Origin: a virus
Virus record (IMG/VR): IMGVR_UViG_3300020156_000448
Location: 32,001-96,000 of that record
DNA length: 64,000 nucleotides
Direction: 5' to 3' (one strand)
Positions 9,938 through 63,814 of the stretch are shown piece by piece (position 1 is the first letter of the stretch; every line of letters starts with the position of its first letter). A model generated the notes under the pieces. That model made no database searches. It saw only the letters and a list, made by a program, of their open reading frames with translations, and was not told the DNA's origin. The translations under genes and the position numbers were made by a program.

Positions 9938-11446
9938 TTATCGTAAATTATCTATAATTTTTTCTGCACAAATTTGCATCTTTTGGTAAATTTCTTCTGT
10001 GCGTTGAGCAATGGTGTCAGAAGCCTCCACATAAGAAGGAAAATGCTTTTGAAAAGCATCAGAGTATACATCTTTATCTTGATCCTCATACATGTAAATT
10101 CCTTGCCCAATAAAATGATTAACAATTTGAACTTGGTCTCTAAGTCTCTCAATCATACTTTTAGTTTCTGGGTCATTCATATCTGCTCCATTTTCAAGTA
10201 AATGTCGCATAATGTATGTAGTTTCATCAATTTCTACGCTAGCCTCGAAGGTTGGGACTAAATCGATGTTGTTTTCTAGTTTGTAGGCTGCGTGCCCATC
10301 AAACGAACCATAAAATTCATAGTTCGCAATTTGATTAGCTAATGCGTGAGCCTCAATTTCATCTACAAAAGATTCATTTTTAATCGATTCAATACAACTA
10401 ACTACTCCCGCAATAAACTTAGAATTTACGCTCAGATGTGTCACTAGCTTTTCAATCTTGTCGTAATTAAAATTACCGTCCTCATATAGGTTGGTACTTA
10501 TATAACTTACTAGTATATTATCCTGATCAACTAGGTCATCTATAGAGAAGCCGCCCACATCGTTTTGCATAACAATATCTGCATCTGTTGTTTTAGCTAA
10601 AAGTTCTAGCCTTGATTTATAATGTTCTAGATTAACTTTATTTTGTTCCCATAATTGATTAATCACTTCTGCATCAAGAGGCATATTGGGATGCAAGCCT
10701 CTTGGGTTATTTTTTCTATAGTTAGCCCCCACCTCTTTGACCAAAGAGTTGTTTAAATCTACTCTAAATTCTAACTCCCCATCGTCTGATCTTTGAGTAT
10801 ATATATTGGAAGCTGCTAATTCGGCATCTTCTTCAATGGTTTCTTTCGTTGAAGAATAGTCTATAGCGCCCAATACGGTCTTTCCAAACCAACTTCCGAA
10901 TAAATTATGATCATGTTTAGCATCTATTGGCTCAGTGTTTGTGTTTAAAGAAATATCTATTAAGTTCTGATCATTATCATCTAAGAACGCTGTCTCTCCC
11001 TCTTCGAGTTCAGCAACATATTCACTCTTTTTGGCAACTCCGTCAATGATGACATCATCAAATAACTCATAAATTCCAAAGGCTCGCAACAACAATACTA
11101 CTGGCTGAGCGTCATCGGAAACACCCTGCTTATCGCTTGCAGAGACAATATATAGATTTTTACCCTTACTTTTTAAGGAAAGCAATTGCTCTTTAAAGCC
11201 TTTTTCTAATTTGACCTTGCTACCTTTTGAATCTTCAATTAAAGTGTTGCTAATGAGCTTATATGGCGCTTCTGTGGCAGCAGCATATGATAGACCACCT
11301 TCAGGATTAGTGACTTCCCAAATTGTGTCATCGGCGTCGAAGATGATTGTATCATATTCGTTCAAATCATAACCTGCTACCTCTGTAGGTTTCATGTTCA
11401 TCTGAGTTAGCAATTCACTAACATCATCATTTCTATTACTTGGCAT
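9938..11446 (-). CDS. HAD-superfamily (Mdp-1-like) phosphatase fused to an unknown C-terminal domain
   Basis: Motif I IIFDADDTIW, motif II VSAS, motif III KK, motif IV FLDDND; start moved to ATG 11446 (GGAG RBS) from the ORF-track start 11503. Confidence 0.7.
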   Translation of the reverse strand: MPSNRNDDVSELLTQMNMKPTEVAGYDLNEYDTIIFDADDTIWEVTNPEGGLSYAAATEAPYKLISNTLIEDSKGSKVKLEKGFKEQLLSLKSKGKNLYIVSASDKQGVSDDAQPVVLLLRAFGIYELFDDVIIDGVAKKSEYVAELEEGETAFLDDNDQNLIDISLNTNTEPIDAKHDHNLFGSWFGKTVLGAIDYSSTKETIEEDAELAASNIYTQRSDDGELEFRVDLNNSLVKEVGANYRKNNPRGLHPNMPLDAEVINQLWEQNKVNLEHYKSRLELLAKTTDADIVMQNDVGGFSIDDLVDQDNILVSYISTNLYEDGNFNYDKIEKLVTHLSVNSKFIAGVVSCIESIKNESFVDEIEAHALANQIANYEFYGSFDGHAAYKLENNIDLVPTFEASVEIDETTYIMRHLLENGADMNDPETKSMIERLRDQVQIVNHFIGQGIYMYEDQDKDVYSDAFQKHFPSYVEASDTIAQRTEEIYQKMQICAEKIIDNLR

Positions 11447-11912
11447 TGTATTTCTCCGATCCGCTATAAGCCTTTTCTTTAAGCTCCAATATGGCTTCTC
11501 CATGTTTCGTTACATCATGCTTTATTTCAAAAATTTTACCCTCTAAGCTCTCAATCGCCTTAGCATTATTATTAATCCTCACATCGTTGACGGTTGCTTT
11601 GGTCGATATTTCATGAATGTCTTTGCTAATTTCTTTATATTCTTCTTTGCCATTATAATTAAGGGTAATTAAAATACTCGCAATGCCAACAATAGCACAA
11701 ATGCCAGCAAATGCCAGATTTAGCCAACTATCGACACTAGGCTTCTGGGGCTTTTCATCAGCAGAGAGCATATTTTCTAATATTTTCTTAGCTAAATACT
11801 GATCGGTCATCTTACTAAAAAATTGTTTATTTCTAGTAATAGCCATGTCTAAGTCTTGGATATGCTCGTTAGCAGCCTCTAACTCTTCTATATTAATCTT
11901 CTTTTTATCCAC
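11436..11912 (-). CDS. single-pass membrane protein with coiled coil
   Basis: Hydrophobic segment WLNLAFAGICAIVGIASILITLNY followed by a heptad-rich tail. Confidence 0.55.
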   Translation of the reverse strand: MDKKKINIEELEAANEHIQDLDMAITRNKQFFSKMTDQYLAKKILENMLSADEKPQKPSVDSWLNLAFAGICAIVGIASILITLNYNGKEEYKEISKDIHEISTKATVNDVRINNNAKAIESLEGKIFEIKHDVTKHGEAILELKEKAYSGSEKYNAK

Positions 11913-11915
11913 GAC

Positions 11916-13139
11916 TTACCTCTGTTTGTTTATGCGATCACTGCCCTTTACAATCTTCTTGTCAACTGAAGCGAAAGTCTTCTGAAAGTCTTTCCATGAT
12001 TTAATTTTGCTAATTCTGTCTCTTCTTTGCTCCCGACGCTTACGGTTTCTGTATTCTTTACGTCGCTGGATTCTCTCGTACATATGAGTATTATTATAAG
12101 CTGTTTTATACCACGATTTAGTATCTTCAAGATACAAATGATCCTTAACTGTGGAGACAGTTCCCAACTGAGAATCTAGCAAATCAATTGCTGTAGTAGA
12201 ATCTATTAGGTCTTGTATATAAAGGCTTGCTAAAGCCTGCTGAAGATTATTCTTAATGTCAGTATTAAGTAAATCTTGATAAGCAAGACATAATTGCAAC
12301 TTGTTCGCTGTTTTATCCAAGCTACATAAAACATTAGAAGCAGCCATATACTTGATTCCCATTTGCCTCTTTATTGAATGATCAAATATTTCATGAGGAA
12401 TCGGAATAGTATCGTATAGCTTGTATTTTTTAAACATAGCATCCGCCTTCTCATTGTCTATATCAAAGATGTCTCTTACAAGATTTTCAACAAAGCGCTC
12501 ACTTCTATCTGCTGTAGCTTGTGGTAAAAGTCCTATGCCGTAAGGAATTTCCTTTTTAAGGTCTTCTGTTGGTTCTAGTTCAAACTCCAACTGAAAACGC
12601 ATCATTCTTAAAATAATAAATGGATTAAACTCAATGGCGCTTCTGGCTGGAATAGGAGTTCTAATAACCTTGTTCTTTATCAGGTCGTCATAGCCTTGAC
12701 CAGTAACATCCAAAAATTTCTCATTAATTACATCGTAGCACATGGTATCGATTGTAAAGTCTCTCTCATAAATATTCTTATAAAGAAAAGTAATCGGAAT
12801 TCCTAGGCGCTGCATTTCGCCTTCTATTGGAAAGTGCACATGAGGATTATCAATACTCTGAAATTCAAAGTTATAACCATTGCATACTATTTTTTTTGTA
12901 CCTGTGTACTCGTACACAATAGGCTCTCCAAGACCAAACCTCTTTGAAAAATCCTGCAAAATTGCTTCCATTTTTCCTTCACGCGAAATCACATCAAAAT
13001 CTTGAATATCTTCGACTGGAACACCAAGCAGCCAGTCGCGCACGAATCCACCAACAATCAATGGATAATCACCAACTGCCTTGCCTGACTGTGCCAGTTT
13101 TTGAAAAGCATCTACTAGATTTTGAGGTAAGTCGCGCAT
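11916..13139 (-). CDS. class II (CCA/poly(A)-polymerase family) nucleotidyltransferase with a divergent templating motif and basic C-terminal extension
   Basis: IVGGFVRDWLLG...QDFDV catalytic motif; ERDFTID; motif D reads EFNPFIILRMMRF instead of xEDPLRxLRxxRF; tail ERIQRRKEYRNRKRREQRR. Confidence 0.85.
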   Translation of the reverse strand: MRDLPQNLVDAFQKLAQSGKAVGDYPLIVGGFVRDWLLGVPVEDIQDFDVISREGKMEAILQDFSKRFGLGEPIVYEYTGTKKIVCNGYNFEFQSIDNPHVHFPIEGEMQRLGIPITFLYKNIYERDFTIDTMCYDVINEKFLDVTGQGYDDLIKNKVIRTPIPARSAIEFNPFIILRMMRFQLEFELEPTEDLKKEIPYGIGLLPQATADRSERFVENLVRDIFDIDNEKADAMFKKYKLYDTIPIPHEIFDHSIKRQMGIKYMAASNVLCSLDKTANKLQLCLAYQDLLNTDIKNNLQQALASLYIQDLIDSTTAIDLLDSQLGTVSTVKDHLYLEDTKSWYKTAYNNTHMYERIQRRKEYRNRKRREQRRDRISKIKSWKDFQKTFASVDKKIVKGSDRINKQR

Positions 13140-13140
13140 A

Positions 13141-13503
13141 TTATTTTCCTTTTAAGTGCGTAATATCAATCAAATCCCAAAATTTGGTTCCAATATGAAC
13201 ATTACGATCACTAAACCAATCTTTGCGTGTTTCAATAACATACTTAACATTATAGTCTTTTGAATTAACGGGCTGTTCCTGATTTGCTTCTAATTGAGCT
13301 ACGTGAACTAAAGAGCCACCCATGTCAAAGAAAGCCACATCAATAGGGAAAGAGACATTTTTATTCCAAAATGACTGCCTTGAAGGTCTATCAAAAACAA
13401 AAAGACCGCATTCATCATCGGGAAGAGGTTCACTAAACATTAACCCTTTTTCTCTATCTCTTTCATTAATTGCTAAAAGTGTTATTTTTAGTCTTCGTTC
13501 CAT
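13141..13503 (-). CDS. DUF192 family protein
   Basis: A.....REKGLMF...L..DE.GLFVF......FWNKNVSFPIDVAFFD...YVIE..WF signature. Confidence 0.85.
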   Translation of the reverse strand: MERRLKITLLAINERDREKGLMFSEPLPDDECGLFVFDRPSRQSFWNKNVSFPIDVAFFDMGGSLVHVAQLEANQEQPVNSKDYNVKYVIETRKDWFSDRNVHIGTKFWDLIDITHLKGK

Positions 13504-14165
13504 TCCTTAATAATTCTCCATTTTCCATTGTTATCTCTAACTATTTTTTCACCTTGATTTGGAGAAGGAAACTCCAAAGCTGGTGTATTTTGAGTGCTAC
13601 AAGTCTGAATAATATTCTTTAGGCAACGTGAAGTCTTAGATAAAGAAGAAGAATTATCAAGCATTAACTTAACCAATATTTCATGCCCTTTATCTGTCAA
13701 ACTTACGTCATGCCCAGCGCCCTTCAATAACCCCTGTGCCTTTAAGCGATTAAGCTCGTTATCTGAAAGGTTTGAAATCCTAAACACCTTCTCTGGGGCG
13801 TTACTTGAATCTTGGATAATGCTTGCACTATCCCACGCTTTAAAAAGTAAACTCTTATCCTCTTCGGCTGTTACTTGATGAAATCCATTTGATTTCATAA
13901 TTTGTTCAAGAAGAGGGGAAACATTAAAATACATGACCCCATCACCACTGGCTGTTGGCGCTGAGGAGTTATTAAGAACATAATCAACCAAGCTTCTTTG
14001 ACCCATATTAGACCACTGGAGCTTATCTGTTATATGTTGAGATGGACCCTGCATGGTATTTTGGTCAAAACCATGAGCAGGAAAGAAGTTTTGTGCAACC
14101 TTTACCATTCCGTTCTTTTGCGCAACACGTTGCTGATGTGCATTGGGAGTTCTAAAAAAACGCAT
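13488..14165 (-). CDS. hypothetical protein with a possible winged-helix segment
   Basis: ELNRLKAQGLLKG....VSLTDKGHEIL resembles a wHTH wing; N-terminal RVAQ and KVAQ motifs. Confidence 0.5.
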   Translation of the reverse strand: MRFFRTPNAHQQRVAQKNGMVKVAQNFFPAHGFDQNTMQGPSQHITDKLQWSNMGQRSLVDYVLNNSSAPTASGDGVMYFNVSPLLEQIMKSNGFHQVTAEEDKSLLFKAWDSASIIQDSSNAPEKVFRISNLSDNELNRLKAQGLLKGAGHDVSLTDKGHEILVKLMLDNSSSLSKTSRCLKNIIQTCSTQNTPALEFPSPNQGEKIVRDNNGKWRIIKEWNED

Positions 14166-14206
14166 AATTCACCGCCATTAAAATTGATCTTGTTCTTATT
14201 ATACTA

Positions 14207-14232
14207 TTTAATGTATACAAATACAAAATCCT
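14207..14232 (-). promoter_or_regulatory. candidate SigH-type late promoter (weak)
   Basis: Minus strand CAGGA-N18-TAAA followed by TAGTATAAT, in the only sizeable intergenic gap of the NTase cluster. Confidence 0.35.
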
Positions 14233-14247
14233 GCGGGAACATTGGCG

Positions 14248-14985
14248 CTATATGATAAATTGCTCAAAACCATACTCTTGCAGCAATCTCTTTCCATTGT
14301 CTGGATTGGGCTTTAGTATTTTCTCAATAGTTTTTGAAGCCTTATCAATATCTATTTCAGTTAGAATATGTTCTCTATGTTTTCTAATGGCTGCATCAAG
14401 CTCATTATCTATAGTGAAATCATATCTGTTAGCAAAAACTAATGCTCGAAGAGCAATTATGGAGTTTGTCTTAACTGATAAATCTGCATTGACAGGACAT
14501 CTAATAATCCCATCATCCAAATCTTTTTTTGCCGTACCTAATACGTCATAAATTTTACCGCTTCTCAAGCTCATGATTAATGTATTTATAGTAAAATCAC
14601 GAGAAATAATATCAAAACTTAAATTGTTTTGGGGAAGATTGGTTTTTCTTAACTCAGGAAGAAGATCAAAGTTTTTTAAATTAGCCTTACAATCAATGTC
14701 CAAGCCATTGACACTAAGTTTTCCTGTACCTGTTTTATGGCTATATTCAACAGGAACACCAAATCTCTCTGCTACCGCGCCTGCTAGATAAAGACCGTGA
14801 TAATTTTCCGCCATAAGGTCAATATCGCTTTCACGTGTATGTTCTTTGCCCCAGTATTCATCTCTGCAAAATCCACCTACTGCAAATGCAATGAATCCTA
14901 AAGAATGCGTAATTTCGTCTATTCCGTTTAGCACAGAATAAACAACTGCTTCCTCTTGGCTTTTTGGCTTTTTATTTATTGGCAT
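14248..14985 (-). CDS. minimal class II (CCA/poly(A)-polymerase family) nucleotidyltransferase with a divergent templating motif
   Basis: AVGGFCRDEYWG...SDIDL; SRDFTINT; motif D reads KTNSIIALRALVF; head and neck plus a short body only (245 aa). Confidence 0.82.
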   Translation of the reverse strand: MPINKKPKSQEEAVVYSVLNGIDEITHSLGFIAFAVGGFCRDEYWGKEHTRESDIDLMAENYHGLYLAGAVAERFGVPVEYSHKTGTGKLSVNGLDIDCKANLKNFDLLPELRKTNLPQNNLSFDIISRDFTINTLIMSLRSGKIYDVLGTAKKDLDDGIIRCPVNADLSVKTNSIIALRALVFANRYDFTIDNELDAAIRKHREHILTEIDIDKASKTIEKILKPNPDNGKRLLQEYGFEQFII

Positions 14986-14994
14986 TCATATCAC

Positions 14995-15417
14995 CTATTT
15001 AGAGCCTCTAACAATACCTTTTTTATCCAAAGCTTCGTTTGCCCAATCTCTAATAGTGCCATTGTTTAAATGATTTACAAGCTCCATTGCATTAAATCGT
15101 TTCATTACAAGTGGAACGTTACACATTAAAGCTTCTCTAAATATGTCGTCCTTCGGCTCGCATCCTGATATAAATACAGCCTTGTGACTCAAACCCATTT
15201 TATGTAATTCGTTATATACATCTATGCCACTTATTCCATTGAGATAGAGATCAATTATATAATAATCTACCAAAGGTTCGAATCTACCATCTTGAACTGT
15301 CTTCAATGCTTCTTGAGCACTGCTTACAAATTCAGTCTCATGACCCAGCGCTTTAAACATTTCGGACAATGTAAAAGCTGTCAGTTCGTGATCATCTATG
15401 ATGCATACTTTTAGCAC
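14995..15417 (-). CDS. single-domain (CheY-like) response regulator
   Basis: IIDDHE acidic pocket, phosphoacceptor in IIDLYLNGISG, FISG, conserved Lys in MKRF; no output domain. Confidence 0.9.
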   Translation of the reverse strand: MLKVCIIDDHELTAFTLSEMFKALGHETEFVSSAQEALKTVQDGRFEPLVDYYIIDLYLNGISGIDVYNELHKMGLSHKAVFISGCEPKDDIFREALMCNVPLVMKRFNAMELVNHLNNGTIRDWANEALDKKGIVRGSK

Positions 15418-15430
15418 AATTCACTCTCCA

Positions 15431-16957
15431 TTAATCCTTGTTAATCCTTATACTAAAGACTGTGTTTCCAGGCTCACTACTCTCTAGATTTAGTTCCATA
15501 TTGGCATTAGAAGCAAATACCTTGCTCAAATATAATCCTAAGCCTGTACCTGGAACTTCTCTAAAAGGTCTAAAAAAAGGATTAAACAAACGGTATTGAA
15601 GATTTGATGGGATGCCTCTACCATTATCCCTAACTTGAATTAAGTAATAATCTTCATTCTCTACAACATCAACTACTATCTTGCCTTCCTTTCTACTATA
15701 CGCCTTATCTTTATAGCTTGCAATAGCCTTTCTTGCATTGCTCAGCAAATTGATAACAACCTGTCTTAATATGTTATTTGCAGCAATTGCTCTAATTGAA
15801 GCAGGACCATTATATAATATCTTGATTTGGTTTTCTTTATAATCGGAACTTAGACAATATGTTTTAATAGTTTCCTGTAGTAAAACCGCTAAGTCTACTT
15901 CTTTTGTGTCACCTATTATAGCTTGTATTATATCTTCTTCAGTATTGTAACCCCGAATACTTCCAAAGCTCATAATGTTGCCTACAATTGTTTCAATAGA
16001 ATTTGCCGATTGTTTGATTGCTTGCAGGTATTCTAATTTCTTATCCGCTTCTAGGTCAATCAGTCCTTTGACATTACCTATTAAAAGATCAGCAGCGTTA
16101 TCTATTGCCTGAACTGGTGATCTTGTTTCATGAGTAATGCCAGAGATGAATGAATTAATAGCAGTAATTGTAAACTTTTGCATCTCTAAACCAAGAGTAT
16201 CCTTGAACTCGTTTAATTCTTGAACTGGATTTCTTATGGCTAATCCAGCAATATATATATCTCCTCTATAGCAATTAAAAGGGAATTTGAATACGAGCCA
16301 ACTAACCATGTCTCCTGTAGCATCTGGAACTTCTTCAAACAACTCTACGGGAACGTTTCCCTTAAGCATCATTTTGTCATGTTCTACTAATTCGGCTGCT
16401 ACACTTTTAGGGAATAAATCAAAATCGGTTTTACCAATTACTTCCTCTACTGAACTTCGTGCAAGTTCAGCAAATCTCTTATTGACATAAATGTACTCAC
16501 CTTTGCTATTTTTCATAAAAGCTATTGCTGGACTGTTTTCCATAAAGCTTTCAAACAAAGATTGACTTCTTCTTAATTCAAGATCGGCTTTAACTCGTTG
16601 TGTAATATCTTGGATAAAACGATAATGACCTTGAAAGACCATATCCTCATTATAGCATGCTACAATAACTAGGCGTTTATAATATACTTCACCGTCCTTT
16701 TTGACGCCCTTTAGTTCTAATTCGGTTTTACCATCTTGCAGCATCTTTTCAATAGCGCTATTGGCTTCATTATGACAATCTGGATGAATCGTGGTCGTCC
16801 ATGGCTTACCAATTAACTCATTCATATCATAACCACATATATTCGCGTAGGACATATTCAAGGAAATGTATTCTCCCTCAGCATTAATCAATGCTATTCC
16901 ATCCAATGCGTGCATCATAATATTATTGAATTGATAAAGACCCTCATTCTTATCCAT
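15431..16957 (-). CDS. cytoplasmic PAS-PAS sensor histidine kinase
   Basis: Two PAS/PAC repeats (…QDITQR…); H-box ITHETRSP; N-box QVVINLLSNARKA; G1 DNGRGI; F-box LFNPFF; G2 GTGLGL; no TM segment. Confidence 0.93.
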   Translation of the reverse strand: MDKNEGLYQFNNIMMHALDGIALINAEGEYISLNMSYANICGYDMNELIGKPWTTTIHPDCHNEANSAIEKMLQDGKTELELKGVKKDGEVYYKRLVIVACYNEDMVFQGHYRFIQDITQRVKADLELRRSQSLFESFMENSPAIAFMKNSKGEYIYVNKRFAELARSSVEEVIGKTDFDLFPKSVAAELVEHDKMMLKGNVPVELFEEVPDATGDMVSWLVFKFPFNCYRGDIYIAGLAIRNPVQELNEFKDTLGLEMQKFTITAINSFISGITHETRSPVQAIDNAADLLIGNVKGLIDLEADKKLEYLQAIKQSANSIETIVGNIMSFGSIRGYNTEEDIIQAIIGDTKEVDLAVLLQETIKTYCLSSDYKENQIKILYNGPASIRAIAANNILRQVVINLLSNARKAIASYKDKAYSRKEGKIVVDVVENEDYYLIQVRDNGRGIPSNLQYRLFNPFFRPFREVPGTGLGLYLSKVFASNANMELNLESSEPGNTVFSIRINKD

Positions 16958-17444: not shown

Positions 17445-20400
17445 TTATTCCCCCATGAACATAGGCATACGGCTGGTGATATTGTTTTCATAACCAGTAA
17501 GGTTTACCCTATATTTTTCATTATGTCTCAAAAAGTCCATTACAGACATCAAGTTACCGAATTTAATTGGCTTATCTGGTCTATCATAAGCTCTCATCAT
17601 ATAATTTCCAGATTGTTCATCTTGATAAAAATACAACATTCTTCTATGACCTTTATCAATGTTTTCTGGACGCTCTCTGCCAGAGTCCATATCAATCTCA
17701 AATTTGAATTTATAATTCGGGTATTCCTTATCGTGTAATTGGTCCAAATTTTGATGATTATTATTTCCTGGGGTCAACCTACTTGGATCAGCATCAGGAA
17801 TTGGCTCAGGACTAATTGGATATAGAGAATTCATTAGCTGTGCTGATTTAACGCTTGCGTAATAATCTCTCATAGGTTCTGCTGGATTAATATTGCCATG
17901 CATAGAAGATGGATTAGGGGTAAGCACAATGGATTTACGTGGTCGGTCTTTTGGTTGATCTTTAACCTGACCTTTGCCGCCTCCAAGATTAACCTCATTA
18001 GCTTTATCATCAGAATTCCATCTATTTGATCTTGGCTGAGTTTTCATTACAGGATAAATATCTTTAGCAATCTTTCTAAACATAGAAGTCATAGACGCGA
18101 GAGTATTCTTAGATGCTTCTTGCTTAATAAAGCTGGCTGCTTCTTCTTTTGAATTAACTCTTTTTTGCATCTGCGCCCTCACAAGGTTACTAATAAGTGT
18201 GTTCATCCAAGCTCCAGGTTTAATGTCTGGATTTACTTCTTTAACGATATTAAGAATTTCGTTTCCATTTAATAATGGTGTAATTACTTGTTTTCCTTCA
18301 TCTTTAATATTGCGATAGTTAGAGTACAACACCTCTTCAACTGCGCCTTTATCTACAGCAATAGCAGGATTGACCAAGATAGGCAGAATAGACAGAAGCC
18401 AACTACCTGCTGGCTTGCCTGTAATTTCTGCTGCCAGCGCTAATTTCTTCACTATATCGAAAGCTTGATTTCTGCTTGTAATTTTCTGGTCAATTTGCAA
18501 ATCAACAAGCTGTTTGTTTAGTAACCCAATCCATCTCAAATCCTTCGAAATCATGCTTCCAAATAGGGTCATTATTTCATTGCCATTGATAAATGGAGTC
18601 AATCTGCCTTGAATTCTCTGGAGACCGCCATTCTCATCCTGCTGTAAATGCTGTAGTGCAGCAACAAGATAATCATCTGTATTTCCAGGCTCTTTATGAG
18701 CGCGTCTATCAGCCATAGCTAACATAAGAAGATCAAAGATTTCATCATTCATCTTTTTGCCATATGCGCCCTTCATTGTAATCAATAGTCTTCCAAGCTG
18801 CGACTCAAGTTGAGTAGGGTCATTGATGACTTTATCAAGTCCTAGAACCTCATCATGCATTTTTACCAATGTGCTAATATTGGTAATTTCTTCCGTTGAG
18901 AATTTTAAACGCTGCAAATTAGCAAGAGTCTGCTCTGTCGATATTTCAGGGTGCCCAAAGTATCTTCTTTTTGAGACATTGCCTTCGCCATCGAACTCTT
19001 CCTGATAGCCTTTATCACCTTTAAACAATTTGCCTACATCATGAAATAATGCAGCCATATTGAGAGTAAATAACTTTTGAGGGTCTTTCACTCCATGTTG
19101 TTGTACCACTTGCTGCAAATGACTCATAACAGTCATTGTATGATCCCAAATGGATTCGTAGTGGTGTGGGTTCAAATGATCCATATCCCAGTTCTGCTCT
19201 GCCTGAACGGGAAGCTTTAACACAAATTGAAGGAGTCCACATTCCTTCATGAGCTTCAGGCTTTGTGCTGCGTTCGGAAGACTCATAATTTTTCTGAATT
19301 CTTCAGCTACTCTTTCGGCAGAAAGCTTTGGAGTATAATCATATTTCCAAAATTCAGAGTCTAATTCGTCGCCTTTTACGCCAATTAGATGTGGATTTTG
19401 TTTTATATAATCTACAATTGGGCTATCGATTTTAAAATCATGCTGGGCTGCTTGCCTAATTGCACGTAAAATACGAAGCGGGTCATCTTGAAAAATAGTA
19501 TCAATGGCGCTTGGGTCAGTGATTCTGATTGTTTTTTCCTGCACGTCTTGTAGCCCATGTCCTGTTGGATCATGAAGCGCACCCTCTATATCGCCTTGAA
19601 TATATTTATCGAGATCAAGGAACATAGCATTCATGCCAAAATCTCTGCGATTGGCATCCTCTTGAAAATTACCCATCTCTGTTCTTGGTTTGCGGCTTCC
19701 AGGTTCATATCTTTCTGTGCGAGGATATGCAATTTCCACCTCTCCAATTGGAGTAGGGACAGCATAAATACCGAAGGCTTCGCCTCTAGGAATTTGCCTT
19801 CCAAATTGCTTTGCTAATAATAAGCTGGGATTTATCGATGTTTCGAATGGGGCATTAGATATTAGCTGTGGTTTCTTTTTAGAATTATCCATATAATCAA
19901 TATCGGCGGTAATTCTAAAAAACTCTGATCTATAGTCAGATTGTTCTAAATTAAAGCTATTAACACGAACGAGCTTCTTTGCGCCCTCAAGATTATTTTG
20001 TATAAAACTCATTGGATCGCGCTGTGCTTCATCAATGAATGGCTGAATCTGTCTCATGTAAGTCTCAGTATCAGCTACATCCACCATAATATCTAAATCT
20101 TTTGGAGATTTTTTGCCAACCAATAAATCACGAACAAATCCGCCAGTAGCATATGGAACTAGTCCAACGGCACGAGACTTCTCAACAATATCTGATATCA
20201 CCTCCATATACTCTTGAGGAATGCTTATTTGTCTATTGTAAGCCTGTGCAAAATTAAACAGGTATCTTGCAAATGATCCTGTTTTTTTCATGTTTTTTGC
20301 ACCAGCCATCCATACCCAATCAGGTCCATATTCTTGATCCATATCCGCTACAAACCCACCAAGCTCCTCTGCTTCTTCAGGAGTAACTGTGGGTTTTTTA

Positions 20401-23400
20401 TTTGGTAAGCCAACACTCAACGAAAGCTCTTTTTTAGCATAATCAATAATAAAATCATACATAGATTGTGGTATGACATCACTGAAAATTTCATTCTTAC
20501 TATATTCGCTCGCATTTGATAAGGAAGCTGGAGGATCAAACATATACATTAATAAATCTGGCAATGTAAAAATCTGCCTAGGAACATTGGAATTCTTATG
20601 CAAGTATATTGAGATAGAGTCTCGCATACCGCCTTGAACAAATTGATCCACTTTGACTTTAATCCCATTGACCATTTGCTGGAAATCAGGTCTTTTCTGA
20701 ACATTAGATATAAATTCATCCCTAGTATTAGGGAGAGTTAACATCGTATTTTCTTCTGGTGGGATAACCTTGTTTGGAAACGTTACGAGTTTTTTGCCTT
20801 GATCAAACTCTAGCCTTTCCTGAGTTTTAGACTTAAGATACTGCTGCATAAAATATTTAGCAAACATATGCGTTAGATTCTGAATTTGCTGTTCTCTAGG
20901 AACTTTTTTTCCTGATTCAAATACGCTCTGCTCATATTCTACAAGCATCTCTCCCACAGTTTCCATCGCTGCTTCTCTATTCATTCCTTGAAACTCGATA
21001 GGGAAATTTTCGATAAGTTCAGATTTTATTTGCTCATTCATTCCTGCCGTAATTCGTGCATCAAAAGGGAATTGAGAATTGAAGAAAGCATATAACCTTT
21101 GTTTCATATGCTGAAGATTACCGTATTGAAACGCTAAAAGCTCAGTTGGCTCCGTTATCCATCCTCCAGCGGTTTGATAGTTACTGCTATCATCAATACC
21201 CACTCCAGTTAAATGGTGACTAACCTCATGCCATAAAGTATTTTCTTCTGAAAACGAAATGGTTTTGTCTTCTGGCTTAATACCTAAAAATTTCTCAAGA
21301 TTTTCAGCAGCATTTACCATGTCGTTTTCAGTTACGTCGCCTTTGGTAAAAACGAAAATTGTTGGATTGTCAGCGATCCCATATGATGGAGAATAAAACC
21401 CATTCATTTGGTATGGGCTATATCCCGCGTTTGCTAAATCTTCTGCTCCGAAGTGGCTAATAAATTTTTGACTGTCAACTAGATAAATATCCAATTCTTC
21501 AAGCTTGTTCATAGCAATTTCATAAGCTTTCTTATAATTACGTTTCCCATCATCATCGCGCCCAGTAAATACTTCTTCAGTATTATCTGTATATCTTTGT
21601 AGAAATGTTTTACAATACTCCATCAATTCAGGGAAGTCACTTACTTTCTTTTTGACCACGCCATTTTCCGCTGCTAAATATGATTTCATTCCTTCTCGCA
21701 CATCGTTTTTTGCTTTGGCGGTTTGGTGTCTTATTTCAGCACGAAGAGTATTTAAAAACTCTTGATCATTCTCATCTCTAGTTGTAATTGCAGAAATGAC
21801 CTTTAGTGCATCTGTCATATATCTTTTGGTGGTCTCGTAGACTACTTCGGGTGAAAATAACCCTGAACACAAAACAAACCACACCTGAGAGGCTTTTGCC
21901 ATTGAGTCAATAATTTTAGGCGGAAATGCTGCCATGATTTCCATGGTTGCATTAAAATCACTATCTAGTGGTCTGCTCCAATGTGGTGGATTATCAGGAT
22001 CATAATCTTCTTCCTTGGTTGGATTATTGCCACTTATAATCATGGAAGCCAAGAAGCTGCCTGCACTCTGAGTATATTTCCGAATTATAGCATGCTTAGA
22101 CATGTCTATATAAAAATTTTCCACTGCCAAATACTCGCCAGCGGCTTCTCTTGCCTTCGCAGTATCCAACTCTTTATAAAACCACTCTTTAAATGCTTGA
22201 GCTTTTTGCGGACCTGGAGCAAGACTACTATCTATCATTCTAGAGGCGGCAGATGCTTCAATAGCACTAAAAAAATATCTATCGTTTTCGAGTTTGGAAT
22301 CATAAAAGTTAACATAATCTTCGTACATGTTTCCAAAAGGATGAATTTGCCTGTTGTCTTCATCAATTAAAACAAGATTACCCTTGTATTGTTGCGCCTC
22401 TTCAGTGCTCTTGGAGTATCTTTCAATCTCACTTTCAGAGCTAGTAATTGATAGGCTTGCATCCTCTGGATATACTGATACTGTTTCTTTTAATTTTGCA
22501 AGAGTTTCTTCCTTAAAATTTACGCCACAAACAATGAACATTTCCGCTTGGATTGTATTATTGACATCTTTGTAATAATGAGACTTTGTTTCAGGATCGT
22601 GGAATTCTACTAATCCCTGTTGCTTGGCATTAAATAACCCATCTATAATTGAAATTATTTCTTGTGGCGTTTTTGAATAGAAAGGATAGCCTGCGCCTAA
22701 TTTCTCTTCTCCAACTCTTTGAAGTACCTTATGTTCAAAAGAACCATAGTTATATATGGCAGGAAGAATACTAGAATGGAAATCTCGTATTTTTTTATTC
22801 TCTCCCTTGTCACGCTCGCCTATCGGATATCCATCACTGTGCTTATACCCGATTCTCAGAGATTCTGTAAGCTCCATCAGCGCTTCAGGAGTAGGGAAGC
22901 TGAAGACGCGCTGCATTAAATCATATTTGGAATTAGCATCAGTAGAAAATATGGAATTCCATATTTCAGGATGGCGTTGACTCAATTCATCAACCATCCA
23001 TTTTGGATATCTATTAATACTCGAAAATACTCCGATGGCTGACTTGGGAGAAATCTCTAGCGTCATTATGTCTTTATATATATCATCTGTAAGACTATTA
23101 GGTATATCGGTTTTCCATTTTCCATTCCTATACATCTTGGAGGCATCTTCGTCGTGCACTTTAAACAACGACCATAAAGTAAACGCTTCTTGTTCTGGCG
23201 TACCCTTAGTTCTTCCTAGATATTTTTGAGCCAAATCCCAGTAATACCAGCCACCAAGAACATCTCTTTCCATAGCCAAACTTAACTTGTACTGACTAAA
23301 ATAATAATGATTGGGATATTTTTGAAAAAGAATACAGTCTATAACAGTATTTGTATGGGAATCTAAACCGAACTTTGTCACTGTAGATAAAATCTCTGGT

Positions 23401-23522
23401 GGAGCAGTATTTTCATCATACTTCATATACTCTTCTGCATCAAACGACTGAACACCGCGAAAGAAATCATCCGCGCCTGCGAGCATGATCATTTTATTGA
23501 AAATATTATTAGATTTTCCCAT
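17445..23522 (-). CDS. giant multidomain protein: unknown N-terminus + HEXXH zincin-like domain + CCA-adding enzyme with HD domain and duplicated tail domain
   Basis: LWHEVSH (about 21216-21230) with downstream PTE; TGGFVRDLL...DLDI (about 20130); loop RTERYEPGSRKP; EDANRRDFGMNA; FQDDPLRILRAIR (about 19480); HD motifs HTM, FHDVGK, GHPE, MHD, ADRRAH; two [FL][IL]NGNEI tail repeats. Confidence 0.85.
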   Translation of the reverse strand: MGKSNNIFNKMIMLAGADDFFRGVQSFDAEEYMKYDENTAPPEILSTVTKFGLDSHTNTVIDCILFQKYPNHYYFSQYKLSLAMERDVLGGWYYWDLAQKYLGRTKGTPEQEAFTLWSLFKVHDEDASKMYRNGKWKTDIPNSLTDDIYKDIMTLEISPKSAIGVFSSINRYPKWMVDELSQRHPEIWNSIFSTDANSKYDLMQRVFSFPTPEALMELTESLRIGYKHSDGYPIGERDKGENKKIRDFHSSILPAIYNYGSFEHKVLQRVGEEKLGAGYPFYSKTPQEIISIIDGLFNAKQQGLVEFHDPETKSHYYKDVNNTIQAEMFIVCGVNFKEETLAKLKETVSVYPEDASLSITSSESEIERYSKSTEEAQQYKGNLVLIDEDNRQIHPFGNMYEDYVNFYDSKLENDRYFFSAIEASAASRMIDSSLAPGPQKAQAFKEWFYKELDTAKAREAAGEYLAVENFYIDMSKHAIIRKYTQSAGSFLASMIISGNNPTKEEDYDPDNPPHWSRPLDSDFNATMEIMAAFPPKIIDSMAKASQVWFVLCSGLFSPEVVYETTKRYMTDALKVISAITTRDENDQEFLNTLRAEIRHQTAKAKNDVREGMKSYLAAENGVVKKKVSDFPELMEYCKTFLQRYTDNTEEVFTGRDDDGKRNYKKAYEIAMNKLEELDIYLVDSQKFISHFGAEDLANAGYSPYQMNGFYSPSYGIADNPTIFVFTKGDVTENDMVNAAENLEKFLGIKPEDKTISFSEENTLWHEVSHHLTGVGIDDSSNYQTAGGWITEPTELLAFQYGNLQHMKQRLYAFFNSQFPFDARITAGMNEQIKSELIENFPIEFQGMNREAAMETVGEMLVEYEQSVFESGKKVPREQQIQNLTHMFAKYFMQQYLKSKTQERLEFDQGKKLVTFPNKVIPPEENTMLTLPNTRDEFISNVQKRPDFQQMVNGIKVKVDQFVQGGMRDSISIYLHKNSNVPRQIFTLPDLLMYMFDPPASLSNASEYSKNEIFSDVIPQSMYDFIIDYAKKELSLSVGLPNKKPTVTPEEAEELGGFVADMDQEYGPDWVWMAGAKNMKKTGSFARYLFNFAQAYNRQISIPQEYMEVISDIVEKSRAVGLVPYATGGFVRDLLVGKKSPKDLDIMVDVADTETYMRQIQPFIDEAQRDPMSFIQNNLEGAKKLVRVNSFNLEQSDYRSEFFRITADIDYMDNSKKKPQLISNAPFETSINPSLLLAKQFGRQIPRGEAFGIYAVPTPIGEVEIAYPRTERYEPGSRKPRTEMGNFQEDANRRDFGMNAMFLDLDKYIQGDIEGALHDPTGHGLQDVQEKTIRITDPSAIDTIFQDDPLRILRAIRQAAQHDFKIDSPIVDYIKQNPHLIGVKGDELDSEFWKYDYTPKLSAERVAEEFRKIMSLPNAAQSLKLMKECGLLQFVLKLPVQAEQNWDMDHLNPHHYESIWDHTMTVMSHLQQVVQQHGVKDPQKLFTLNMAALFHDVGKLFKGDKGYQEEFDGEGNVSKRRYFGHPEISTEQTLANLQRLKFSTEEITNISTLVKMHDEVLGLDKVINDPTQLESQLGRLLITMKGAYGKKMNDEIFDLLMLAMADRRAHKEPGNTDDYLVAALQHLQQDENGGLQRIQGRLTPFINGNEIMTLFGSMISKDLRWIGLLNKQLVDLQIDQKITSRNQAFDIVKKLALAAEITGKPAGSWLLSILPILVNPAIAVDKGAVEEVLYSNYRNIKDEGKQVITPLLNGNEILNIVKEVNPDIKPGAWMNTLISNLVRAQMQKRVNSKEEAASFIKQEASKNTLASMTSMFRKIAKDIYPVMKTQPRSNRWNSDDKANEVNLGGGKGQVKDQPKDRPRKSIVLTPNPSSMHGNINPAEPMRDYYASVKSAQLMNSLYPISPEPIPDADPSRLTPGNNNHQNLDQLHDKEYPNYKFKFEIDMDSGRERPENIDKGHRRMLYFYQDEQSGNYMMRAYDRPDKPIKFGNLMSVMDFLRHNEKYRVNLTGYENNITSRMPMFMGE

Positions 23523-23542: not shown

Positions 23543-24205
23543 TTAATTTCCTTGTTCATTGTATACGAATCTTATCTTATTTTTCTTTAAAAGATTCTTG
23601 ATTGGATCAATTGCGATACCAACACTTATTCCTTGTGAGTCGGTGTTTTTAGAGTTAAGCACAGCTACAGCTATGCCTATAACAGCTTGCTTTTCTAGAG
23701 AATATATCAAACCACCAGAATTTCCAGGATTAGTTCTTAAATCCAGCAAGAAATAATTATCACTTTGACCATCTTGTGCCATGTTGGTGTTAGAAACAAT
23801 TCCATAAGAAACTGTATTCTTATAACCCAAAGGGCTTCCTACAGAAACTACTGCTTCTCCCTCTTGGATTGTTCCGCTATTACCAAGATTTAGAAAGTAA
23901 GTATTAACTTGAGAAGGAGCATTAACATATACAATTGCAACATCCATATTAAGATCATAGTCTACAACTTGGGCATAAAATCTCCCGCCATCAGTTGTGT
24001 TTACGACTATGGATTTAATATCAGGATTTGGTTGCTGTGGGGTTATTCCCAAAACATGAGCACATGTAATAACAATTCTAGGGGCGACAAAAAAGCCTGC
24101 CCCTATATCTCCTGCATTTGAAGCCATATGGACTTCAATCATTACACTGGAGCTTTTGATTTGACTTACATAGTCACTCATTTTTTGAGCGGTCTTTAAA
24201 GCCAT
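23543..24205 (-). CDS. trypsin-like (S1C/HtrA-type) serine protease, no PDZ domain or signal peptide
   Basis: Catalytic triad motifs ITCAHV, DVAI, NPGNSGG; VGSPLG..NTVS.GIVS. Confidence 0.9.
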   Translation of the reverse strand: MALKTAQKMSDYVSQIKSSSVMIEVHMASNAGDIGAGFFVAPRIVITCAHVLGITPQQPNPDIKSIVVNTTDGGRFYAQVVDYDLNMDVAIVYVNAPSQVNTYFLNLGNSGTIQEGEAVVSVGSPLGYKNTVSYGIVSNTNMAQDGQSDNYFLLDLRTNPGNSGGLIYSLEKQAVIGIAVAVLNSKNTDSQGISVGIAIDPIKNLLKKNKIRFVYNEQGN

Positions 24206-25597: not shown

Positions 25598-27565
25598 TTA
25601 AGCGCCACCATTATATGAATTAAAGTTATTCATTCTCTGAAATATAGATTGCCCAGCTCCGCCGCGATTTCCTGCACCATTTCCAGAAATGCTTGGGAAT
25701 TGATTTCCACCCAAAGGAAGATTCATAACTCTAGATGTTAAAGCCTTTCTTGAGGTTCTTTCAGTACTTAAAAAACATGCTCCTGCAAAGCAGTCAGCGA
25801 CATCCTTAGTTTTAACTACTCCTGCATGATTCGCAACAATATTTGGTCCTCTAGCTGTTCGCTTAACTCTTAAGTTCTGCAATTCAACCTTTAATTGTAA
25901 ATCATTTTGACAAGCAATTACTCGCCCATCCAACATAATTGTTCTTAGGTTGTCATATATCTCACGAGCTTTATTACCATTGAATGATAGCAATCTTACA
26001 GGCAGTCCTCTTCTTCTAAAAAAGCTTATAGATTCAGTACTTTGCATACCATCATAAGAGAATGAAACTACTCTGAACTTCCTTGCTACATCAGCAATGT
26101 AATGAAGTATCTCATTAATTGTATACTCCTTACCTGTCTCATTATCCACAAAATGTTCTGGATTTCTTTTGGATGGAGTCCAGAAAAAACTATCATCCTC
26201 GATATAGAAATTTTCATATTGATTAGTTTTAGGATTAAATCTATACTCGTAATGGATAATACAATAAGCGTAATTACAAGTTTTAAAAGCGCAGTCGATA
26301 TGCATATAATATTTAATCATTGCATTTTCAGGACCAGGTTTCTTAGCGATATTTTCTGGATTAGCAAATGCGTATTCCACAGCAGTTTCTGGAAGATAAA
26401 CATCTGCACCTTCGTCTACAAACTGAGCACCAAATAGCTTATCGAATGATAAACCTTCAGCATCCTCTTCGTAGATCATATCGCTTTCTAAGAATTCCTT
26501 GGTCATGTCATTTCTCCACTCCCAAGTAGGCATCTGAATTACTAAAAAGTTATCAGCCTGAGGAAGTCTACCTTGATCAAAGTTCGTCCAAAACTTCCCT
26601 TCTTTTTTATTAGGCATTGATGTCATCATAACTCTACCAGCCTCTGGATGAAGAGCACGGTAGGTTGTCGTCTGCGCCAAGATAGCTTCCAAGAGCTTTG
26701 TATCGTTATCTTTTCCGTCTGTATTAAAAAGCGCAAACTCATCGAAATAAGCGAGAATGGTAGCAGTTCCGTGGAGGGCTGCTGAATTAGAGTGAATAGC
26801 TGCAACTTCAATAGAACCCTTCAGTTGAACGTTATGCATCCCCATTGCTTTTTGTCTTTTGTATCTCTGCTCATCAAATTCAGTCCTATAGAATACGGTT
26901 TCTTCTTCTGGAGTATATCTAGCTTCTAGCAAAGGACTTTCCATTGCACGTTCCTTGTGCATTTTAAGACCAGTGTTTTTAGCCTGCGTTAAACTCGTTG
27001 CTGCTATAAATATACGAAGTGGCTCTGCTCCGCGCACGCCCAAATATCCTTGAGGATGATTTAAGCATTTAGAACCACAATCAGGACAAAGCTCTCCGCT
27101 TTGCACCGGCTTCATGTCCTTACATTTAGGACATACTATCATAGTAATAAGTTTATATACCTCATAAGCTGTTATAGCGCTACTAAGGAAGGTCTTTCCT
27201 GAACGACGCCCTAGTGCCATAACTAAATACTGAAATGGTTTTGTGATCTCTCCGCTTTGTACCTTTTTAGCCTTAGCCAAAAGCCAAGGATTGCCTTGAC
27301 CATAATTATCAATCTTCTCAATAAGCTCAAGGTCTTCGTCAGTAATTTTTATACTTTCGTTGCCAGGAGTATTGATATAAAATAATTTAAGAATTAGTTT
27401 AGCGTATGGGAAAACACCAAAATCTAAACCTAAGTCTTCCACAAACTGCAATATACTCATCAAGCCTGATGACGATGAACTCTTTTTCTCGTATAGCTTT
27501 TTCTTTACCATGTCCGCAAGCATTTGATCTAAATCAATTACTTCGGACTTATTTTTAGCTGCCAT
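25598..27565 (-). CDS. terL: terminase large subunit with a zinc-ribbon insertion
   Basis: Walker A LGRRSGKT, Walker B AYFDEFA, coupling MTSMP, nuclease YMHIDCA ... KDVADCFAG; CPKC..CPDC insertion after Walker A. Confidence 0.88.
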   Translation of the reverse strand: MAAKNKSEVIDLDQMLADMVKKKLYEKKSSSSSGLMSILQFVEDLGLDFGVFPYAKLILKLFYINTPGNESIKITDEDLELIEKIDNYGQGNPWLLAKAKKVQSGEITKPFQYLVMALGRRSGKTFLSSAITAYEVYKLITMIVCPKCKDMKPVQSGELCPDCGSKCLNHPQGYLGVRGAEPLRIFIAATSLTQAKNTGLKMHKERAMESPLLEARYTPEEETVFYRTEFDEQRYKRQKAMGMHNVQLKGSIEVAAIHSNSAALHGTATILAYFDEFALFNTDGKDNDTKLLEAILAQTTTYRALHPEAGRVMMTSMPNKKEGKFWTNFDQGRLPQADNFLVIQMPTWEWRNDMTKEFLESDMIYEEDAEGLSFDKLFGAQFVDEGADVYLPETAVEYAFANPENIAKKPGPENAMIKYYMHIDCAFKTCNYAYCIIHYEYRFNPKTNQYENFYIEDDSFFWTPSKRNPEHFVDNETGKEYTINEILHYIADVARKFRVVSFSYDGMQSTESISFFRRRGLPVRLLSFNGNKAREIYDNLRTIMLDGRVIACQNDLQLKVELQNLRVKRTARGPNIVANHAGVVKTKDVADCFAGACFLSTERTSRKALTSRVMNLPLGGNQFPSISGNGAGNRGGAGQSIFQRMNNFNSYNGGA

Positions 27566-61367: not shown

Positions 61368-62573
61368 CTATTCTTCAATTCCTAGAAGTCTATTTCTTTC
61401 TTTTTCAATAATTACTTCCAGCTTATCCATAGAAAATGTCTCTGGAAGCAATTCTTCTTTAAGCTCTTGTGCAGCTTGCATCAGAAAGATACGACTTGCC
61501 ATTTCGCCAACTAAGTCACCAAGGGTTGCTTGCTTAACAAAGTCTTCAAATGATGGATAAGTCAGTTTATCATCATCTAATGTCTTGTAGATGATTTCAC
61601 CCTTATATATTCTCCAAATACCAGCTTTTTTAGCTTTCCCTATTACTTCCATAATCATATCAGGATCATCGAAGTACAACTCAAACACGCCTGCTCTCAT
61701 TGGGGGTGCGAATTTATTTTTGATAAACTTTACAACTACATATTGACCAATAACATTTTCTTGAGTATCGTATATATTGTAAGATTTTTCTTTTTCGTCG
61801 TAATGCTTACGAACGTCACAGCGAACCTGAGCAAAGAACTTAAGTGCACGTCCGCCTGGAGTATCGTCAGGGTTAGCAAACTTAGAAGCATTCATCTTGG
61901 TTCTTAACTGATTAATCAACACTACCGCTGTCTGGAATTGGCGGCAAAGTGGAGCCAATTTAGAAAGTGCACGTGTCAGAAGTTTAGCAATAGGAGCATA
62001 GTTCTGATCTTCTAAGCTGGATTCCATTTCAACCTTAGGCTGCAAGGCGGCTACGGAGTCGATAACCACAATAGAGATTAAACCTTGCTTGATAAGCTCA
62101 TATATCTTTTCAAATAGGTCTTCTCCCATACAAGGCTCAATCTTAATTAATTGTGCCGTATCGATACCAATTTTTTGCATGCGCTCATTGGTTGTTCCAC
62201 CTTCCAAGTCGCAATACACTGCGTACTTATCAGGAAATACTCTTTGCGCCATTGCTACCAAGCGCTGAGCCATATAAGATTTACCAGAGCTTTCTGGACC
62301 ATACAATTCGATGATAGCATTATTAGGATAACCTCCAATGCCTGCCGCTGTATCCACCATTGGGAATCCACTTGGGATTGGAACAGTAGGATACCAACTT
62401 TCATCTGCAAAGCCAGCGCCTACACCAACCATTTCTTCATCTTTGTATGCTGTGTTTAATTTGGATAATACCTTCTTAATTTTTGCTTCTGTAGCTTTAT
62501 CCTTAGAAGGTACAGGATCGCTAACTGAAAAAGAGGAGCCAGGAAGACCTGGCTCCTTATTAATATTTGTCAT
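61368..62573 (-). CDS. recA: RecA recombinase
   Basis: G.GGYP...I.ELYGPESSGKS, IDSVAAL.PK.E, INQLR.K, TPGGRALKF.A..R, KNK.APP. Confidence 0.95.
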   Translation of the reverse strand: MTNINKEPGLPGSSFSVSDPVPSKDKATEAKIKKVLSKLNTAYKDEEMVGVGAGFADESWYPTVPIPSGFPMVDTAAGIGGYPNNAIIELYGPESSGKSYMAQRLVAMAQRVFPDKYAVYCDLEGGTTNERMQKIGIDTAQLIKIEPCMGEDLFEKIYELIKQGLISIVVIDSVAALQPKVEMESSLEDQNYAPIAKLLTRALSKLAPLCRQFQTAVVLINQLRTKMNASKFANPDDTPGGRALKFFAQVRCDVRKHYDEKEKSYNIYDTQENVIGQYVVVKFIKNKFAPPMRAGVFELYFDDPDMIMEVIGKAKKAGIWRIYKGEIIYKTLDDDKLTYPSFEDFVKQATLGDLVGEMASRIFLMQAAQELKEELLPETFSMDKLEVIIEKERNRLLGIEE

Positions 62574-62586
62574 TTTACTACCTCAA

Positions 62587-63693: not shown

Positions 63694-63775
63694 TTTGTTG
63701 TCCTCCGTATGTTTAACTATATGATTTACGTTATTTAACACTCTTTGAGTGAAACGTTCGAAACATATATACAAT

Positions 63776-63806
63776 TTGTATACAATTAACTAATGTATAT
63801 ATTTAC
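63776..63806. promoter_or_regulatory. conserved element TTGTATACA-N7-AATGTATATATTTAC (extra inverted box at about 63766-63774)
   Basis: Same arms and spacing as 49762-49792; upstream of the SSB-recA-dnaG unit. Confidence 0.7.
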
Positions 63807-63814
63807 TAACAATC

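Follow-up and report, generated by a model that had tools for sequence, protein, structure and literature searches.

What becomes of a class II nucleotidyltransferase when the residues that choose its nucleotide are replaced and the replacement is kept? Class II CCA-adding enzymes select C and A without a nucleic acid template, through the Asp/Arg pair of their EDxxR motif, and we know of specificity changes at these residues only from engineered mutants. The question is raised by a 64,000-nucleotide stretch of viral DNA, hereafter the window (bases 32001 to 96000 of the 125,053-base IMG/VR record IMGVR_UViG_3300020156_000448), in which two open reading frames (ORFs), A (407 amino acids [aa], 11916..13139, minus strand) and B (245 aa, 14248..14985, minus strand), encode class II nucleotidyltransferases with Asn and Ile at the positions of the Asp and Arg. 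In our best reading, A and B appear not to be CCA-adding enzymes, because several canonical elements have been replaced or are gone: the C/A template, the first Arg of the RRD motif, the BxA element (in A), and the body and tail that hold the tRNA. They are probably capsid-associated tailing enzymes. The initial annotation had already proposed natural non-CCA transferases. That proposal is still the likeliest one, with further CCA-enzyme hallmarks now found missing, and the activity itself stays a prediction from sequence.

Both proteins match the PolyA_pol head domain PF01743 (A, 44 bits, E = 3.4e-11; B, 46.4 bits, E = 6.1e-12; Pfam cut-off, 23), and both retain GGxxRD, DxD, the third carboxylate, and RDFT. 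On the minus strand these motifs lie at 13035-13052 (GGFVRD), 12990-13001 (DFDV), and 12753-12767 (ERDFT) in A and at 14860-14877 (GGFCRD), 14815-14826 (DIDL), and 14590-14604 (SRDFT) in B. In place of EDxxRxLR, motif D of A reads FNPFIILR (12606..12629, minus strand) and that of B reads TNSIIALR (14446..14469, minus strand); a canonical CCA-type enzyme within a giant ORF of the same window has DDPLRILR (19464-19487). Recomputed motifs and coordinates of all three agree with those initially annotated. When A is aligned to the Aquifex A-adding enzyme 4wby (HMMER, E = 4.9e-11), N172 lines up with the templating Asp and I175 with the templating Arg, the equivalents in B being N174 and I177. The two proteins are 25% identical across 204 residues (E = 5e-17). 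An AlphaFold2 model of A (predicted local distance difference test score [pLDDT], 81.4) consists of a head and neck at about residues 1 to 250, then a small beta domain, and then a long basic C-terminal helix, and about 245 of its columns are aligned by Foldseek to the class II enzymes 5hc9, 4wby, 1vfg, and 1miv. The helix (residues 343 to 407; 11919..12113, minus strand) has Lys or Arg at 23 of 65 positions, and its core, RRKEYRxRKRRE, is kept in 15 of 17 homologues, with two shorter ones (P0016 and P0017) lacking the helix. B comprises the head and neck only.

The rewritten pocket is a conserved feature of both families. A has 16 close homologues (E <= 1.7e-59, 41 to 72% identity), the next match having an E value of only 2.9e-12. 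Across the resulting alignment of 17 sequences, the catalytic and RDFT positions G30, G31, R34, D35, D47, D49, E92, and E125 to T129 are invariant, as are N172, P173, L177, and R178, and position 175 is Ile in 16 sequences and Leu in 1. B has nine close homologues at 44 to 81% identity; in that alignment (n = 10), GGFCR, D54, D56, and RDFTINTL are invariant, the Asp position is occupied by N (6), D (2), or S (2), and the Arg position by I (8) or V (2). Thus the catalytic motifs and xRDFT, noted at the outset as kept in A and B, are kept in 17/17 A homologues (GGxxRD and DxD) and 10/10 B homologues (GGFCR and DxD), and the substitution is a conserved family trait and not decay, with Asn at 172 in 17/17, Ile or Leu at 175 in 17/17, and Ile or Val at the B Arg position in 10/10. 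A segment proposed to replace the flexible loop in both proteins is conserved within each family but shows few identities between them, so the claim of a related segment is weak. The articles cited here by PMC number are drawn on in excerpt; according to PMC2910056, the flexible loop has no universally conserved residue, RRD serves ribose recognition, and BxA positions the primer.

How far does this pocket extend? A profile built from A and B was searched against 1.84 billion representatives and yielded 31,640 proteins at E <= 0.001, 133 of them at E <= 1e-30. In a first alignment of 173 sequences, made up of the best 150 of the 31,640 matches plus the A and B families, the template pair is D/R in 66, N/I in 43, and N/V in 18, with N/L, N/M, N/N, and D/I in 5 each. 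A second alignment, to which viral loci were added and from which head-plus-neck domains with at least 170 filled columns were kept, holds 239 domains: 115 with D..R, 85 with N plus a hydrophobic residue, 24 with another residue plus a hydrophobic one, 12 with x..R, and 3 of other types. The check proposed at the outset, whether NxxI marks a conserved phage clade, came out in favor of one: in a FastTree phylogeny, 85/85 N+hydrophobic domains fall in a single clade of 111 (support, 0.881) that contains only 4 D..R domains. Together with a sister group of 24 that keeps D/x..R, it forms a clade of 135 (support, 0.981). The view of A and B as one distinct subfamily proved too narrow, as the subclade that includes B, with 70 members (support, 0.909), is distinct from that of A, which has 24 members and is nested in a group of 41 (support, 0.942). 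When the motif D columns were left out, an IQ-TREE analysis of 100 sampled rows again splits 65 clade rows from 35 canonical ones (SH-like approximate likelihood ratio test, 93.8).

Outside this clade the canonical pair prevails. D..R is found in 42/47 IMG/VR control loci, which are distant relatives (the remainder being four S..R and one truncated), in 80/80 metagenome control loci, and in 37/37 GTDB control loci (one genome per prokaryotic species), none of which has a DUF192 neighbor. A metagenome scan returned at least 593 stretches; the matches listed are all distant canonical relatives, which gives no gauge of the frequency of the close family. A tblastn search of 50,697 phage records with A, B, and the proteins P0155 and P0150 found canonical enzymes only among the matches listed, at no more than 32.2% identity, and the four that were inspected all carry DDPLR. 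The clade is absent from the literature searched, including PMC5512222, PMC7824862, and PMC7291057, whose supplements lay outside the search and could mention it.

The first Arg of RRD changes along with the template: it is replaced in the window enzymes (ERD in A, SRD in B), is absent in 84/85 N+hydrophobic domains, and is present in 95/115 D..R domains. DxD is missing from 6/85 N+hydrophobic and 6/115 D..R domains, and on these sequence counts the clade is not enriched in dead enzymes. Three stand-alone clade members (L145, 9953-10756; L146, 9442-10290; L179, 9938-10750) lack the DxD aspartates and parts of GGxxR and retain the neck motif and the DUF192 neighbor; they are candidate pseudoenzymes. 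Within the clade, a 12-member subclade (support, 1.0) has its enzymes directly after the DUF192 gene, and some of these read DPKR or EPKR, with NPKI, NPKN, SPKN, and NSKN in close relatives. Sister pairs such as L169/L174 (support, 0.932) and L152/P0145 (support, 0.911) toggle between the two states. The acidic residue and the Arg tend to be gained and lost together in this subclade, a lead from motif comparison and not a result.

Other hallmarks of CCA-adding enzymes are missing as well. At E <= 0.01, Pfam finds no PF12627, PF13735, or HD domain in A or B, with PF12627 and HD present in the giant ORF. In the HMMER alignment to 4wby, made for A alone, the R-x-E positions of the BxA element face non-basic, non-acidic residues. 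The NCBIfam models of CCA-adding and A-adding enzymes (PRK13299, TIGR02692, PRK10885, and A-tRNAntase) score both proteins far below their cut-offs; the best score of A is 37.3 bits versus a cut-off of 290, and that of B is 60.4 bits versus 1440. A and B thus depart from CCA-adding enzymes in EDxxR, in the full RRD, in the body and tail, and in equivalog scores.

The neighbors of A and B also recur in related loci. Directly upstream of A is a DUF192 (UPF0127) protein of 120 aa (13141..13503, minus strand; PF02643, E = 1.5e-20), whose stop codon lies 1 nt from the A start codon, and between it and B is an unnamed protein of 225 aa (13488..14165, minus strand). In a neighborhood survey, 75 viral loci were searched with single window proteins, 21 with divergent and 54 with canonical enzymes. 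At 18/21 divergent loci, and at 0/54 canonical ones, a DUF192 homologue is encoded no more than about 2 kb from the enzyme; of the exceptions, L144 ends 0.9 kb past the enzyme, and L192 and L199 keep RRD and the Arg. The linkage holds across two different gene arrangements. In the B-type order, the terminase gene (terL) and then the protease gene precede the enzyme, either stand-alone or as the C terminus of an 811- to 1164-aa protein, which is followed by the unnamed winged-helix protein and DUF192. In the A-type order, the protease gene is followed by an ORF like the window's 159-aa one, the unnamed protein, DUF192, and the enzyme, and a homologue of the 521-aa HAD-like protein of the window (HAD521) lies downstream of the enzyme in L152 (8651-9883) and L174 (16738-19401). 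The two arrangements meet in the window, where B, the unnamed protein, DUF192, and A follow one another. A terL homologue lies upstream of the nucleotidyltransferase in 13 related loci, and a homologue of the trypsin-like protease in 9.

The initial annotation had also suggested that A and B may act as a heteromer. An obligatory pairing is not favored, as only L152 among the 21 divergent loci has a second clade-like gene (a B-like ORF of 953 aa). Matching longest-sequence sizes (15961, 20393, 9967, and 31248) do suggest that A- and B-type genes co-occur among the close homologues (P0002 to P0017 and P0122 to P0130). A different pairing, seen in two A-type loci, L151 (11563-12315) and L156 (11469-12635), places a second nucleotidyltransferase ORF of canonical type (DDPLR/EDPLR) about 0.6 kb downstream of the divergent one, reminiscent of the window, in which the two kinds of enzyme also occur together.

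DUF192/UPF0127 is a widespread family with two solved structures, to which the depositors give no function, and the literature search found nothing on its function. A complex prediction of A (residues 1 to 255) with the DUF192 protein scored 0.00 (mark, 0.32), which says nothing either way on binding. Among longer DUF192 proteins, P0286, P0288, P0306, P0324, P0346, and P0373 are fused to a WYL domain (PF13280). The unnamed protein has no Pfam or PHROG match, and homologues are found in seven related loci. Its AlphaFold2 model has a mean pLDDT of 62 and a core at residues 97 to 180 above 80, which resembles MarR- and Rio2-type winged helices with Z scores up to 6.5, a modest likeness that may be a mere common arrangement. 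Homologues of this protein (in L138, L143, L144, L148, L149, L151, L152, L156, L169, and L174) all start MP[LIV]PI or MSPLPI; the window copy does not reach the aligned motif until residue 38, and its start codon may therefore be wrongly assigned. Most B-family members start MP[IV]x[KR]xP[KR], and the N-terminal peptide common to the unnamed protein and the B family might be a targeting or processing signal.

Several relatives hint at the capsid. In P0137 the enzyme is fused to an SLT transglycosylase, and the PHROG matches of this protein include "internal virion protein with endolysin domain"; in P0143 it is fused to ART-PolyVal. Many clade members occupy the last 240 residues of proteins of 800 to 1170 aa with no other recognizable domain. 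For one such fusion, P0150, the N-terminal 880 residues gave no Atlas lead, and the protein has no PHROG or Pfam match beyond the nucleotidyltransferase domain. A tblastn search of the whole record with 144 representatives detected no N-terminal module in common with the window proteins.

Taken together, these data suggest that A and B are able to catalyze nucleotidyl transfer and belong to a large clade of cut-down class II nucleotidyltransferases that is confined to phages. They would add nucleotides to a 3' end without a C/A protein template, with base choice relaxed or different, and their acceptor would not be gripped as tRNA is. They appear to act jointly with the co-conserved DUF192 protein and the small winged-helix protein. 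As their genes belong to a terminase-protease head module, the enzymes may also be packaged in the capsid and take effect early in infection. To this explanation as a whole, that is, tailing without a C/A template, the partners, and possible capsid loading, we assign a probability of roughly 0.55. Work on related enzymes bears on the proposed pocket. EDxxR makes Watson-Crick-like bonds to CTP and ATP; the R215A mutant of Escherichia coli poly(A) polymerase incorporates A, C, and U at random, D212A changes little, and for the use of GTP the EDxxR positions must become residues that hydrogen-bond GTP (PMC2532741).

Several observations weigh against this interpretation. Arg-to-Ala CCA-adding enzymes still make CCA by a primer-assisted backup (PMC2532741); therefore CCA-type addition is compatible with loss of the Arg alone. 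Both A and B are stand-alone, single-domain genes and not polyvalent fusions. The DUF192 association is counted over related phages that are not phylogenetically independent, and no nucleotidyltransferase-DUF192 fusion occurs among 277 proteins or among the 120 listed of 284 longer DUF192 proteins. The N+hydrophobic label takes nine changes on the subsampled tree, with no single clean origin, and the coupled Asp/Arg switch is not significant by independent pairs (11 pairs, about 3.4 in the same direction and 0 opposite, P of about 0.25). Finally, with DxD gone from 6/85 N+hydrophobic domains, catalysis may be dispensable in some lineages.

A bolder form of the same explanation makes the clade capsid-loaded, host-injected RNA 3'-end tailing effectors. 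Here the Asn-plus-hydrophobic pocket without the first RRD Arg would lead to a nucleotide choice other than C/A, such as U/G or a promiscuous one, and closely related phages would toggle between this pocket and the ancestral D..R state. DUF192 would act as the cofactor, and the tailing of host tRNA or other RNA ends at DNA entry would shut off host functions or disarm RNA-based defense. We consider this full scenario doubtful. In the main rival reading, A and B might carry out partial-activity tRNA 3'-end repair alongside the HAD-like phosphatase and the CCA+HD enzyme that the giant ORF carries, with nucleotide choice made by the primer-assisted backup and not by the protein template. The crowding of three PF01743 genes within 12 kb beside a HAD-like gene, the HAD521 homologues that follow the A-type enzyme in L152 and L174, and the CCA still produced by Arg-to-Ala enzymes (PMC2532741) would all fit. 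Such repair nevertheless looks unlikely for proteins that have no body or tail domain (B has only 245 aa), whose BxA positions, in A, are neither basic nor acidic, and whose NCBIfam CCA, A-adding, and PcnB scores all fall far under the cut-offs; the 125-kb record, moreover, has no tRNA gene. In the excerpts of PMC11784652, which describe a randomized library of a human CCA enzyme, in vivo selection for CCA or A repair never yielded variants with the Asp or the Arg replaced, and in CC-adding enzymes only the first position varies.

Another possibility is that the acceptor or donor is not of RNA type: A and B might transfer nucleotides to a protein or a small molecule, or they might extend DNA 3' ends with deoxynucleoside triphosphates (dNTPs), the use of which would become possible with the first Arg lost from the ribose-sensing RRD. 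That Arg is gone in 84/85 N+hydrophobic domains, RRD is involved in ribose recognition (PMC2910056), the genes lie beside terminase and head genes, and the Pol-beta nucleotidyltransferases of polyvalent proteins are predicted protein modifiers (PMC5512222). Set against this are the invariance of the second Arg and the Asp of RRD and of the whole RDFTIN block, and the retention and conservation of the neck domain that forms the nucleotide base pocket; the literature searched contains no protein-modifying class II member, and we judge a non-RNA substrate unlikely, too. A purely structural or assembly role in the head, with the nucleotidyltransferase fold retained and catalysis lost, would suit the conserved position between terminase and downstream head genes, and DxD or GG is indeed lost in L145, L146, L179, P0241, P0260, P0262, P0265, and P0266. 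Every catalytic residue is, however, invariant in the A and B families at 41 to 81% pairwise identity, and the DxD-less share is no higher in the clade (6/85) than among canonical domains (6/115), which makes this role quite improbable. Simple decay of duplicated CCA genes, for which the canonical copy in the same operon might be invoked, is hardly credible: it is contradicted by the invariance of N172, P173, L177, and R178 over 17 homologues down to 41% identity and by the recurrence of the same motif type in 85/239 aligned domains.

The genes around A and B are all on the minus strand and tightly packed. The packaging and head module is marked by the terminase large subunit (25598..27565, minus strand; phrog_2, E = 7.9e-14), followed in transcription order by two small minus-strand ORFs and a trypsin-like serine peptidase (23543..24205, minus strand; Trypsin_2, E = 1.4e-22) upstream of the block. 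Next come the giant 2025-aa ORF (17445..23522, minus strand) and a 159-aa ORF on the same strand. Pfam identifies a soluble PAS-HisKA-HATPase kinase and a stand-alone receiver (14995-16957) between the giant ORF and B; a search of the 75 related viral loci with the two found no homologue, which makes the pair an addition peculiar to this phage. Beyond A, also on the minus strand, lie a 158-aa ORF, a 521-aa protein with an N-terminal HAD/acid-phosphatase-like domain (9938..11503; Acid_PPase, E = 9e-5, below the curated cut-off), and, at the end of the series, three tail-fibre-sized ORFs. A DADDT motif is visible in the 521-aa protein, whose homologues at L152 and L174 follow the A-type enzyme, which makes it a possible end-healing phosphatase or partner.

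Within the giant ORF, Pfam detects PolyA_pol (E = 5.1e-17), PolyA_pol_RNAbd (E = 1.1e-8), and HD (E = 1.5e-4), and a canonical CCA+HD enzyme occupies about residues 1127 to 1560. The giant ORF also contains an HEVSH motif (21216-21230); in its first 1100 and last 451 residues, Pfam matches at E <= 0.1 do not rise above chance level. The window has no Rfam match, and its promoter-like sites (48, versus 52.9 expected) and terminator-like sites (8, versus 9.2 expected) are at chance level. A blastn search with the region found no match in the 50,697 phage records, and the window terminase is at most 23.5% identical to any terminase of that collection; therefore the phage belongs to an uncultured lineage. 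The G+C fraction is 0.435 at 62001-64000 of the window versus about 0.36 to 0.39 elsewhere, a step that may be a module boundary or host junction.

What the clade offers is a large natural set of enzymes in which the Asp/Arg pair has been replaced and the replacement kept, with close relatives in the same context that retain D..R. Such a series would allow the control of nucleotide choice by the pocket to be tested on natural variants, and the clade provides a first clue, from gene context, to DUF192/UPF0127. Should the enzymes be carried in the capsid, RNA-end tailing would join the repertoire of injected phage effectors.

Among known systems, the closest are the class II tRNA nucleotidyltransferases, both CCA-adding (Thermotoga, 3h37/5hc9; Geobacillus, 1miv) and A-adding (Aquifex, 4wby/1vfg), whose head and neck fold is common to A (Foldseek E values, 1.8e-12 to 1.6e-11). 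GGxxRD and DxD, the third carboxylate, and RDFTxN are shared by A and B, which differ from these enzymes in having N..I for the EDxxR Asp/Arg and a replaced first RRD Arg; A further adds a private beta domain and the basic helix. Poly(A) polymerase I (PcnB; 3aqk/3aql/3aqm) likewise has the catalytic core in common with A (Foldseek E values, 6.6e-9 to 6.2e-7). This enzyme itself retains EDxxR, and its R215A mutant loses base selectivity (PMC2532741); the mutant is the nearest experimental analogue of an Arg-less pocket. A regular-expression search for the poly(A) polymerase signature [LIV][LIV]G[RK][RK]Fx[LIV]h[HQL][LIV] (PMC2910056) found none in A, B, or the giant ORF. TIGR01942 scores A and B at 33.5 and 31.1 bits versus a cut-off of 305.65, and PRK11623 is also far below its cut-off.

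In gene context, the clade resembles the polyvalent capsid-delivered phage proteins, with T4 Alt as the prototype (PMC5512222), in being encoded in the packaging and head module beside a peptidase. Some relatives are likewise fusions, with P0137 joined to SLT, P0143 to ART-PolyVal, and others placed at the C terminus of 800- to 1170-aa proteins; A and B themselves are stand-alone genes. "CCA" is not mentioned in the excerpts of that survey (Iyer et al. 2017, PMC5512222), and the Pol-beta nucleotidyltransferases described there are minimal domains from firmicute conjugative elements, of a different family. Another cut-down nucleotidyltransferase is Gp22 of Klebsiella phage fHe-Kpn01 (182 aa), which is CCA-enzyme-like, keeps motif A, and is toxic in E. 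coli (PMC7291057). Unlike the clade, it has the head only, without RDFTIN or neck, and its gene lies beside the DNA polymerase gene and not in a head module. Its membership in the clade could not be demonstrated (hhalign against the clade profile, 21% probability over 28 columns), and Klebsiella phage KP34 has no detectable homologue. A possible functional analogy is with the MenT-type tRNA-tailing nucleotidyltransferase toxins, in which addition to RNA 3' ends blocks their use, although these belong to a different nucleotidyltransferase family.

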